A program made the translations under genes and the position numbers. The notes under the pieces were generated by a model. That model was not told the DNA's origin, did not search any database, and worked only from the letters and a program-made list of their open reading frames with translations. DNA of 64,000 nucleotides, from assembly GCA_041650895.1 (NCBI GenBank), contig JBAZKF010000001.1, positions 209,685-273,684 of the forward strand, given 5' to 3'. Below are positions 24,700 through 25,105 of this stretch, one piece after another. The DNA comes from Patescibacteria group bacterium (GTDB lineage: Bacteria; Patescibacteriota; Patescibacteriia; 2-01-FULL-39-33). Position 1 is the first letter of the stretch. Each line of letters opens with the position of its first letter.

Positions 24700-25105
24700 A
24701 GTTTGTGTTAATAGTTAGATTAAAACTTCATCAGTTCAAGGCGGAACACTGGGGATTATCCGTTGAGATTGAAAACAGCAACCGATGTAAAGACGCGAGA
24801 TTGTCGCATCTCCGCTGGCGACAAGCGCCTTAGGAGCCGCCGCAATCGCGGCGTCTCTACAGGCAGCTTTTTCCAGCAACGGATTAAACCGATAATTTTA
24901 TAAGCTGGGCGGTTGCCTCAACGACCTTTGCCGATAAAATTATGGAATCCCGAAGGCCGAAACCTTTGCGACAGCAAAGTTAGCCCTCAAACCCCTTAAA
25001 GTTTTAATTGTAAATTCTCGTACGCTTATTGCGGACAAGGCAGATGTTTCGCTAAAGGCGAAGCGTCTGCTCTGGACGCAACGTTTTAATTTTCTTAATT
25101 TTCAA
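24700..25105 (-). other. ~400-bp ORF-free region, GC higher than typical intergenic DNA and hairpin-dense; candidate structured 5' leader or ncRNA upstream of the 1184-aa surface protein gene (strand tentative)
   Basis: No ORF of 60 aa or more in any frame. Perfect hairpins: GAGAT-tgtcgc-ATCTC, GCCGC-aatc-GCGGC, CTTTGC-gaca-GCAAAG, TTCGC-taaagg-GCGAA, GCGTC-tgctctg-GACGC. Confidence 0.25.

Follow-up and report, generated by a model that had tools for sequence, protein, structure and literature searches.

Introduction

Patescibacteria, the candidate phyla radiation (CPR), account for a huge share of the diversity of bacteria and are almost uncultured. They have tiny genomes, from which very few regulators or non-coding RNAs (ncRNAs) have been described. 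Single-stranded protein-binding motifs in hairpin loops are familiar from the GGA sites of CsrA/Rsm and from the autoregulatory leaders of ribosomal-protein genes. Long structured 5′ untranslated regions (UTRs) are credited with the long half-life of Lactobacillus S-layer mRNAs (PMC3666127), and in Streptomyces the sigma/anti-sigma pair BldN-RsbN controls the chaplin surface proteins (PMC6101532). S-layers have also been reported for Patescibacteria (bioRxiv 10.1101/2024.05.28.596244). Here we describe a structured leader RNA in a stretch of 64,000 nucleotides (the window) from a Patescibacteria group bacterium (assembly GCA_041650895.1, contig JBAZKF010000001.1, positions 209,685 to 273,684 of the forward strand). 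It is encoded in a gap between a gene for a DUF5667 protein, itself adjoined by a gene for an extracytoplasmic function (ECF) sigma factor, and a gene for a putative surface protein of 1184 aa.

An earlier inspection of the letters by a model (the original prediction) had singled out this gap as GC-rich, dense in hairpins and lacking longer open reading frames (ORFs), and had read it as a structured leader or an independent small RNA. Its coordinates and gene order were correct, and all genes concerned are located on the minus strand. No ORF of at least 60 aa is present in the gap, the largest comprising 47 aa, and the GC content is high (45.3%, compared with 24-37% in most other gaps of the window and 43.5% in coding sequence). 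The general reading as a structured leader is supported by the data below, the specific mechanisms that were suggested for it are not. A leader in front of the probable main envelope protein, with a core motif found in many lineages, would be among the first lineage-specific regulatory RNAs for Patescibacteria and a concrete handle on how these episymbionts control their cell surface.

Results

Conservation of the leader and linkage to the surface-protein gene

The DUF5667 protein and 72 homologues, with an alignment of 29 sequences, led to 160 loci, which were fetched from genomes and metagenomes; nine further loci were obtained by a look-up of exact proteins, of which one (P0024) gave no DNA. 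A total of 19 distinct leader homologues, including the one in the window, were found in Ca. Buchananbacteria and relatives, and all of them are located directly upstream of a signal-peptide gene. The order at these loci is sigma factor, DUF5667 protein, a gap of 207-621 nt and a signal-peptide gene, which encodes about 1130-1230 aa on contigs of sufficient length. Leader DNA is 75-77% identical where the adjoining DUF5667 protein is only 51-60% identical, a degree of conservation that is unusual for spacer DNA.

Between the 3′ end of helix P1 of the leader (see below) and the AUG, every one of the 19 homologues has a spacer of 18-22 nt, the sequence of which varies between classes. The leader stays with the surface-protein gene also when other DNA separates it from the DUF5667 gene, namely a gene of 114 aa in locus L083 (3121-3465) and a palindromic element of about 105 nt, AATGTCAT...ATGACATT, in L164 (3165-3270). 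It occurs once in the window, and no match to the profile hidden Markov models (HMMs) was obtained in the other fetched loci. A repeat or mobile element was rejected for this reason: beyond the single copy in the window, HMM searches of 150 other loci gave none, and viral contigs contained none either. Several weak matches of the long-class HMM on both strands of L066 (Parcubacteria, 1253-4065) may be local repeats.

Covariation and strand of the RNA

The original prediction had named conservation and covariation in relatives as a check, and both were found. In an alignment of natural P5 sequences (A4), 10 of 11 pairs change on both sides and 89.9% of the pairs are canonical, compared with 68.7±2.0% after column shuffling (reached in 0 of 500 shuffles); only 31-54% paired when the 3′ partner was slid. 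For the core, 18 sequences were used, from which the distal P6 arm was spliced out so that MAFFT aligned the classes, and the structure was specified by hand (A5). The 35 pairs of its six helices are 90.1% canonical (77.1±0.9% in shuffles), and changes on both sides occur in 22 pairs (14.6±1.9), with a covariation score of 0.516 (0.275). In 500 shuffles none of these three values was reached, and slid partners again gave 31-54%.

Individual positions illustrate the exchange. In P1, column 7:217 is AU in eight sequences, GC in eight, CG in one and GU in one. P2a shows the compensatory series CUUUGC/GCAAAG, CCUUGC/GCAAGG, CCUCGC/GCGGGG and CCCGCC/GGCGGG. P3 alternates between CGG:CCG and UAG:CUA, and column 87:182 of P4 is GC in eight sequences and AU in six; these two helices are 92.6% and 87.7% paired, respectively. 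RNAalifold on cross-class MAFFT alignments had missed P2-P4, the 5′ strands of which were misaligned, and was replaced by single folds, a duplex test and the hand-specified structure. In the duplex test, which requires no alignment, cognate strands of the rod reached -22 to -35 kcal/mol (z-scores of -2.7 to -7.2 against shuffled strands), and for 16 of the 19 sequences no partner from another class paired as well as the cognate one.

The minus-strand RNA of the gap folds with -136 kcal/mol (z = -5.6), and none of 100 shuffles was as good. Of two controls of the same length, the gap before the sigma gene gave z = -1.5 and a coding stretch z = -1.9. A similar value was obtained for the plus strand (z = -5.8), and energy alone can therefore not pick the strand. 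The pairs themselves do so: on the opposite strand the same pairs are only 70-80% canonical, many of them being G-U, and thus the RNA lies on the gene strand. As had been predicted, the gap hence encodes a structured RNA that is conserved, covaries and is tied to the downstream surface-protein gene.

Architecture of the leader

Folded singly, each of the 19 sequences adopts the same plan, consisting of a rod (P1-P4), a three-way junction and two arms, P5 and the variable P6 (Table 1). The core fold comprises about 290 nt, the leaders of the family 200-470 nt. About 30 bp, with interruptions, form the rod, the outer helix of which lies 19 nt before the AUG in the window, and the junction is almost without unpaired nucleotides (GAUU|CC ... 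GGAU|AAUC). The P5 loop GGYAAAGGYCG is invariant, with A19-A21, G23 and G26 being the same in 19 sequences. The RNA of the window is a seed member of the family; it possesses rod, junction, P5 loop and position, and is matched by R1, a covariance model of the whole P5 arm, at 24886-24947 with E = 2e-12.

Three classes can be distinguished, a 'long' class of nine sequences that includes the window and two 'short' classes of five each. Members of the long class have an extended P6 arm and, in seven of nine cases (not in L084 and L086), the extra hairpin P2a; the short classes lack both. The sequence of P0 differs by class (CUUGUUUG-GAAA-CAAACAAG; ACGGGCC...CCCGU; CUAAUUAG...CUAAUUAG), and in the long class a hairpin of other sequence stands at the place of P(-1), e.g. 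AGAGA...UCUCU in L005. An insertion of about 200 nt lies within P6 in L163 (about 3450-3650) and another insertion within P2 in L088; the peripheral parts of structured RNAs typically tolerate insertions in this way. In the window and in L005, AAGGUCG could form a pseudoknot with the rod strand CGGCCUU, but not in the short classes, and the idea was dropped.

Table 1 Positions of leader elements and adjoining genes in the window
Feature	Position	Strand	Remarks
P(-1), GCAGA...UCUGC hairpin around TTCGC/GCGAA	25040..25070	minus	5′ flank; seen by eye; position conserved
P0, small hairpin about 10 nt upstream of P1	25017..25039	minus	present in all three classes
P1, 5′ strand AUUAAAACUUUA	24997..25008	minus	pairs with 24719-24730; 12-bp helix, in every homologue
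P2, 5′ strand GGUUUGAGG	24985..24993	minus	pairs with 24733-24741; duplex prediction
P2a, CUUUGC-UGUC-GCAAAG (the CTTTGC/GCAAAG hairpin)	24964..24979	minus	long-class insertion; helix backed by covariation
P3 (CGG) and P4 (GGGAUU), 5′ strands	24946..24959	minus	pair with 24742-24744 and 24752-24757
P5 arm, helix of 10-13 bp, internal loop GGCAAAGGUCG, inner hairpin GGC-AACC-GCC	24889..24945	minus	
Core motif AAAGGUCG in the P5 loop	24922..24929	minus	followed by the GGC-AACC-GCC hairpin
P6 arm, base helix AUCCGUUG/CAACGGAU and long-class extension	24758..24884	minus	base helix covaries
GCCGC/GCGGC and GAGAT/ATCTC hairpins	within P6 extension	minus	local pairings competing with the nested fold
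P6 extension, invariant string CUGUAGAGACGCCGCG	24862-24847	minus	
P6 extension, invariant string GCGUCUUUACA	24796-24786	minus	GCGUCU(U/C)UACA across the class
3′ strands of P4, P3, P2 and P1, AAUCCC ... CCG ... CCUUGAACU ... UGAAGUUUUAAU	24719..24757	minus	
Spacer between P1 and AUG (24699-24697)	24700-24718	minus	19 nt, A-rich; no Shine-Dalgarno sequence
Gap encoding the leader	24700-25105	minus	406 nt
Surface-protein gene	21145-24699	minus	1184-aa ORF with signal peptide; putative wall-anchored surface/S-layer-type product
DUF5667 protein gene	25106-26320	minus	404 aa, single-pass membrane protein; Pfam DUF5667
ECF sigma factor gene	26292-26843	minus	Pfam Sigma70_r2/r4

Five perfect short hairpins had been listed for the gap in the original prediction, and all of them are present. 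As elements of the structure they differ: CTTTGC/GCAAAG and TTCGC/GCGAA fit conserved elements (P2a and P(-1)), whereas GCGTC/GACGC is not conserved. GCCGC/GCGGC and GAGAT/ATCTC are less stable than the nested P6 fold, which has a covarying pair. The main helices P1, P2, P4, P5 and P6, which are long-range or rich in A/U, were missing from that list.

For the P6 extension the nested rod is the unconstrained minimum free energy structure in nine of nine long-class sequences, and pair 37:64 is CG in four, GC in four and AU in one. An alternative of three consecutive hairpins, among them GCCGC/GCGGC, is 93.7% pairable and lies about 1-25 kcal/mol above the unconstrained minimum. It may represent a co-transcriptional intermediate or the leftover of an internal duplication.

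The start-codon region

A scan of the gene strand found no terminator-like site, and no U-tract follows a hairpin in the 18-22-nt spacer; the attenuator that had been considered in the original prediction thus finds no counterpart here. Nor is the ribosome-binding site (RBS) sequestered; its predicted accessibility was equal for natural and shuffled cores in 10 leaders, and no sign of ligand or temperature sensing was seen, in contrast to the suggested riboswitch or thermosensor. On the same equality the idea of an 'insulator', in which the fold would keep the RBS open, was rejected. A switch between P1 and a pairing of its 5′ strand with the start codon, derived from a direct repeat (D1), was rejected as well, since three close relatives gave z-scores of no more than -2.4 to -2.8 and the other sequences scored near 0. 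In the window, a GGAG-like or AGGA-like Shine-Dalgarno motif precedes only about 10 of 53 genes, and most upstream regions are rich in A/T.

In short-class loci and in L086 the stop codon of the DUF5667 gene is enclosed by a covarying hairpin, GGCAAG-uaa-CUUGCC (L004 5170-5215, L085, L086, L165-L167), with a variant GGCAAA/UUUGCC in L165 and L167. Behind it stands a conserved box, TGnTAAAGT, similar to an extended -10 element. The hairpin hints at co-transcription of the leader with the upstream genes, but the box could also point to a start of its own.

Database searches and coding potential

Against Rfam 15 the whole window yielded only two tRNAs at gathering thresholds, and thus no match of the gap to riboswitches, T-boxes, EAR or large ncRNAs. 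With E up to 10 the sole match in 24500-25300 was a chance snoRNA (17.5 bits, threshold 46), and ARAGORN detected no tRNA or tmRNA in the gap; that the region matched neither tmRNA, RNase P, SRP nor 6S RNA had already been noted in the original prediction, and Rfam likewise gave no match to the gap for these. A likeness of GGYAAAGGYCG...GGCUUA to the P4 strands of RNase P is regarded as coincidence, as RNase P models gave no score and the segments are only 15 nt apart; AAGUCGA(A/G)C, which by eye recalls the 16S rRNA near its 5′ end, was treated in the same way. In literature searches we found no published description of this leader RNA. It is an RNA family new to Rfam 15, of a known general kind.

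No reading frame in the gap is kept open across the 19 homologues. Public gene calls opposite the leader comprise 123 aa in L005 (5178-5549, equal to L162 1841-2212) and 64 aa in L164 (3169-3363). A coding reading of the gap was rejected, since no frame is conserved and the 123-aa antisense ORF of L005 and L162 is absent elsewhere. Both calls are probably annotation artefacts and show, as in L162, that gene callers put spurious ORFs opposite the leader.

A shared motif in distant Patescibacteria

The P5 model R1 matches the 19 family loci only, with no match in L169, L170 and about 150 DUF5667 loci. AAGGTCGA (AAGGUCGA in RNA) was searched in the 147 loci outside the family, where the DUF5667 clusters are distant ones and come from many lineages of Patescibacteria. 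It occurs 27 times in sense and twice in antisense orientation in intergenic DNA (88 kb sense), as opposed to 16 and 8 times, respectively, in 702 kb of non-family ORFs. Most of the listed sense intergenic AGGTCGA sites (n = 28) lie 43-445 nt before a large signal-peptide gene and after a DUF5667-like gene. The N-termini of these signal-peptide proteins are commonly of the M..KK...W..G type, like that of the window protein (e.g. MKKLFTIGVVLTTILWTMGVAAF).

At flanking positions, which were not selected, A is found at -1 in 24 and at -2 in 18 of 25 instances, and a GC-rich hairpin begins within 6 nt of the motif in 10 of 25, whereas control positions gave 3.3±1.6. A partner box of the -35 or -10 type at fixed spacing to the motif was not found. 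We therefore take the conserved unit to be a single-stranded (A)AAAGGUCGA beside a hairpin, on the RNA. Leaders contain one to three strict copies, or up to five when looser GGUCG variants are counted: three AGGUCGA and two GGUCG are present in L093, two AAGGUCGA and a CGGUCGA variant in L021, and two copies in L039. The window carries the module as well, AAAGGUCG at 24929-24922 being placed beside a hairpin.

A leader of 405 nt in L169 (Parcubacteria, AP029158.1, 2596-3000) precedes a homologue of the surface protein with 31% identity and is also highly structured (z = -6.4), but does not match R1 or the family HMMs. By eye, AAAGGGUCGA is followed there by a hairpin with a GCAA loop.

Genes of the locus and other regions of the window

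The sigma and DUF5667 genes overlap by 29 nt. For the ECF sigma factor the top NCBIfam match is the BldN family, below the cut-off, and the DUF5667 protein has one hydrophobic segment near residue 80. Proteins flanking the gap matched a Logan contig and NCBI metagenome-assembled genomes labelled 'Patescibacteria group bacterium' and 'Candidatus Buchananbacteria', and the order sigma, DUF5667, gap and surface protein is conserved in relatives.

The 1184-aa protein gave no match in Pfam, NCBIfam or PDB. Its homologues, of which 110 were found, mostly comprise about 1130-1250 aa and occur throughout Patescibacteria (Buchananbacteria, Magasanikbacteria, Falkowbacteria, Parcubacteria); PG_binding_1 or S-layer homology (SLH) domains are present in some of them. 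Genes for TPR proteins and for membrane proteins of the Wzy_C or PMT type are located downstream. In view of these homologues, the downstream genes and the S-layers reported for Patescibacteria, a major surface protein anchored to the wall is the putative identity of the 1184-aa product; from this context it would be abundant and of S-layer type.

A small divergent gene resembling HTH_17/excisionase (27344-27667, plus strand) adjoins the sigma gene, with secE-nusG beyond it; equivalents are conserved in L001, L163 and L165-L168. Two further regions of the window were noted. A gap of 428 nt (55702-56129, minus strand) before a 2110-aa ORF (49369-55701) is strongly structured (z = -4.7) and contains a stem-loop similar to a tRNA T-arm (UCCGG-UUCAAGC-CCGGA) as well as a perfect terminator-like hairpin followed by U7; neither ARAGORN nor Rfam gave a match in it. 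The other region, 35324-36846, comprises 1.5 kb without an ORF of at least 100 aa and has 39% GC.

Discussion

With a probability of about one half, the gap represents the structured 5′ leader of the surface-protein mRNA and its P5 module recruits a trans-acting factor. The leader may at the same time be intercistronic RNA of a transcript that covers the sigma, DUF5667 and surface-protein genes. A cis-acting leader with a factor-recruiting P5 is favoured because no terminator, no RBS sequestration, no alternative pairing with the start region and no promoter partner of the motif was found. The P5 module would be the ancient part of the RNA and would serve as recognition site for the factor, either a protein or a complementary RNA. 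Such a factor would act after initiation and set how much of the surface-protein mRNA survives and is translated, be it through mRNA stability, through processing away from the sigma and DUF5667 genes, or through translation. By this means an abundant surface product could be uncoupled from the low-level regulatory genes just upstream. The scaffold of rod, junction and P6 would hold the module in fixed geometry beside an unstructured, A-rich landing site for the ribosome.

Several points weigh against this proposal. R1 gives no score in the distant leaders; a 9-nt motif with a hairpin next to it is all that they share, and this is little to base homology on. Strand-specific enrichment of the motif in intergenic DNA would fit a DNA element, too. 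A simple effect on translation initiation is not visible, as the predicted accessibility of the RBS is unchanged. The leader might begin inside or upstream of the gap, the trans-acting factor is hypothetical, and the abundance and S-layer identity of the 1184-aa protein are suggested by its context.

Going further, we tentatively suggest that AAAGGUCGA and its hairpin are the site of a new regulator of the main surface protein across many Patescibacteria lineages, possibly a protein or a conserved UCGACCUUU RNA. The Buchananbacteria element would then be a three-armed riboregulator of about 300 nt built around this site, and the whole a new, CPR-specific class of cis-regulatory RNA. This wider view is less likely to be right than wrong.

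Alternatively, the leader could be a passive stabiliser, as in Lactobacillus slpA or E. coli ompA, where stable helices shield the 5′ end of an abundant mRNA from 5′-dependent decay and no specific factor is involved. For S-layer mRNAs, a longer half-life due to extended structured 5′ UTRs is indeed known (PMC3666127). That the L169 leader is unrelated and nevertheless highly structured suggests that structure itself is wanted before this gene, and in short-class loci the TGnTAAAGT box precedes a hairpin, which would then be 5′-terminal. However, a stabiliser needs neither an invariant single-stranded 9-mer across the phylum nor invariant junction sequences and a fixed three-arm architecture, and we regard it as unlikely.

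A leader that senses a ligand or temperature through the three-way junction and switches expression of the surface protein would explain the complex, conserved and covarying fold, in which invariant unpaired nucleotides are combined with variable peripheral arms as in an aptamer. The P6 extension even offers two mutually exclusive schemes, both about 90% compatible with the nine sequences. Yet this bistable extension is absent in 10 of 19 homologues, and its alternative form is the less stable one by about 1-25 kcal/mol. An expression platform is missing altogether: there is no terminator, the AUG region is not sequestered and its accessibility unchanged, and conservation was not seen for a pairing in which the P1 5′ strand would instead join the start region. 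As no Rfam riboswitch matches either, sensing of this kind appears rather improbable.

Antitermination RNAs are known to occupy exactly such a leader position, and the leader could act in cis on RNA polymerase, allowing processive read-through of the 3.5-kb gene and of the downstream TPR and Wzy-like genes. This would agree with the position of a structured leader, which opens a long locus for surface structures, with TPR and Wzy_C/TPR proteins encoded downstream, and with the lack of a translational platform. On the other hand, EAR and related models of Rfam do not match, internal terminators in need of suppression would be hypothetical, and the constant spacing of 18-22 nt to the AUG is left unexplained. 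We consider this improbable.

The core of 190-470 nt and its complex fold also resemble stand-alone ncRNAs, and it is conceivable that an ncRNA gene of small or medium size merely precedes the one for the surface protein, perhaps with a product released by processing. An independent small RNA, one of the two readings of the original prediction, is nevertheless disfavoured and very unlikely, given that no terminator separates the element from the AUG, that the distance to the AUG is fixed and that the element is always linked to one gene, once per locus.

Least probable is a DNA-level element with AAGGTCGA as promoter or operator, e.g. for the neighbouring ECF sigma factor, and with the inverted repeats as protein-binding sites: the motif is strand-specific, intergenic and sometimes multi-copy like the tandem promoters of S-layer genes, and the adjoining ECF sigma/anti-sigma pair recalls the BldN-RsbN control of chaplins (PMC6101532), but no -35 'AAC' or -10 'TAnnnT' partner exists at any fixed spacing, a promoter scan found no sigma-70-like site on the gene strand, and in the family of the window the motif lies within helices that covary via G-U, which would give A-C mismatches on the opposite strand, so that both helix halves must be on one RNA.

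A cis-acting leader with a factor-binding P5 module can be compared with several described systems. The slpA leaders of Lactobacillus acidophilus and L. crispatus are likewise long folded leaders directly before the gene of an abundant secreted surface protein. They consist of short simple hairpins, however, and share neither sequence nor architecture with the RNA of the window, a three-arm fold of about 290 nt with invariant loops and a phylum-wide motif. For the window system, a matching transcript start, a long half-life and S-layer identity are putative.

In gene context the locus resembles BldN-RsbN of the chaplins and rodlins, where an ECF sigma factor and a single-pass membrane protein with a large extracytoplasmic domain are encoded near surface-protein genes. 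The DUF5667 protein is a putative anti-sigma factor; no BldN-type promoter was found, and a leader RNA is not known from Streptomyces.

EAR of the B. subtilis eps operon and put of phage HK022 are structured leader RNAs connected with a long surface-structure operon and without a terminator/antiterminator switch, like the leader described here. Rfam gave no match in sequence or structure to the RNA of the window, and EAR is located between genes within its operon. The raiA motif, OLE, ROOL and GOLLD, large bacterial ncRNAs from comparative genomics, are mostly stand-alone genes, unlike the RNA of the window, which lies at a fixed 19 nt before one start codon and matches none of their Rfam models. 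They have in common with it a covarying multi-helix fold, conserved junctions, variable arms and the restriction to one lineage.

Leaders of the CsrA/Rsm type differ in that the window motif AAAGGUCGA is not A(N)GGA, that no copy overlaps the RBS and that its binding protein is hypothetical. The arrangement is similar in both: a short invariant loop motif beside a helix, present in one to several copies, in sense orientation only and in front of one class of genes.

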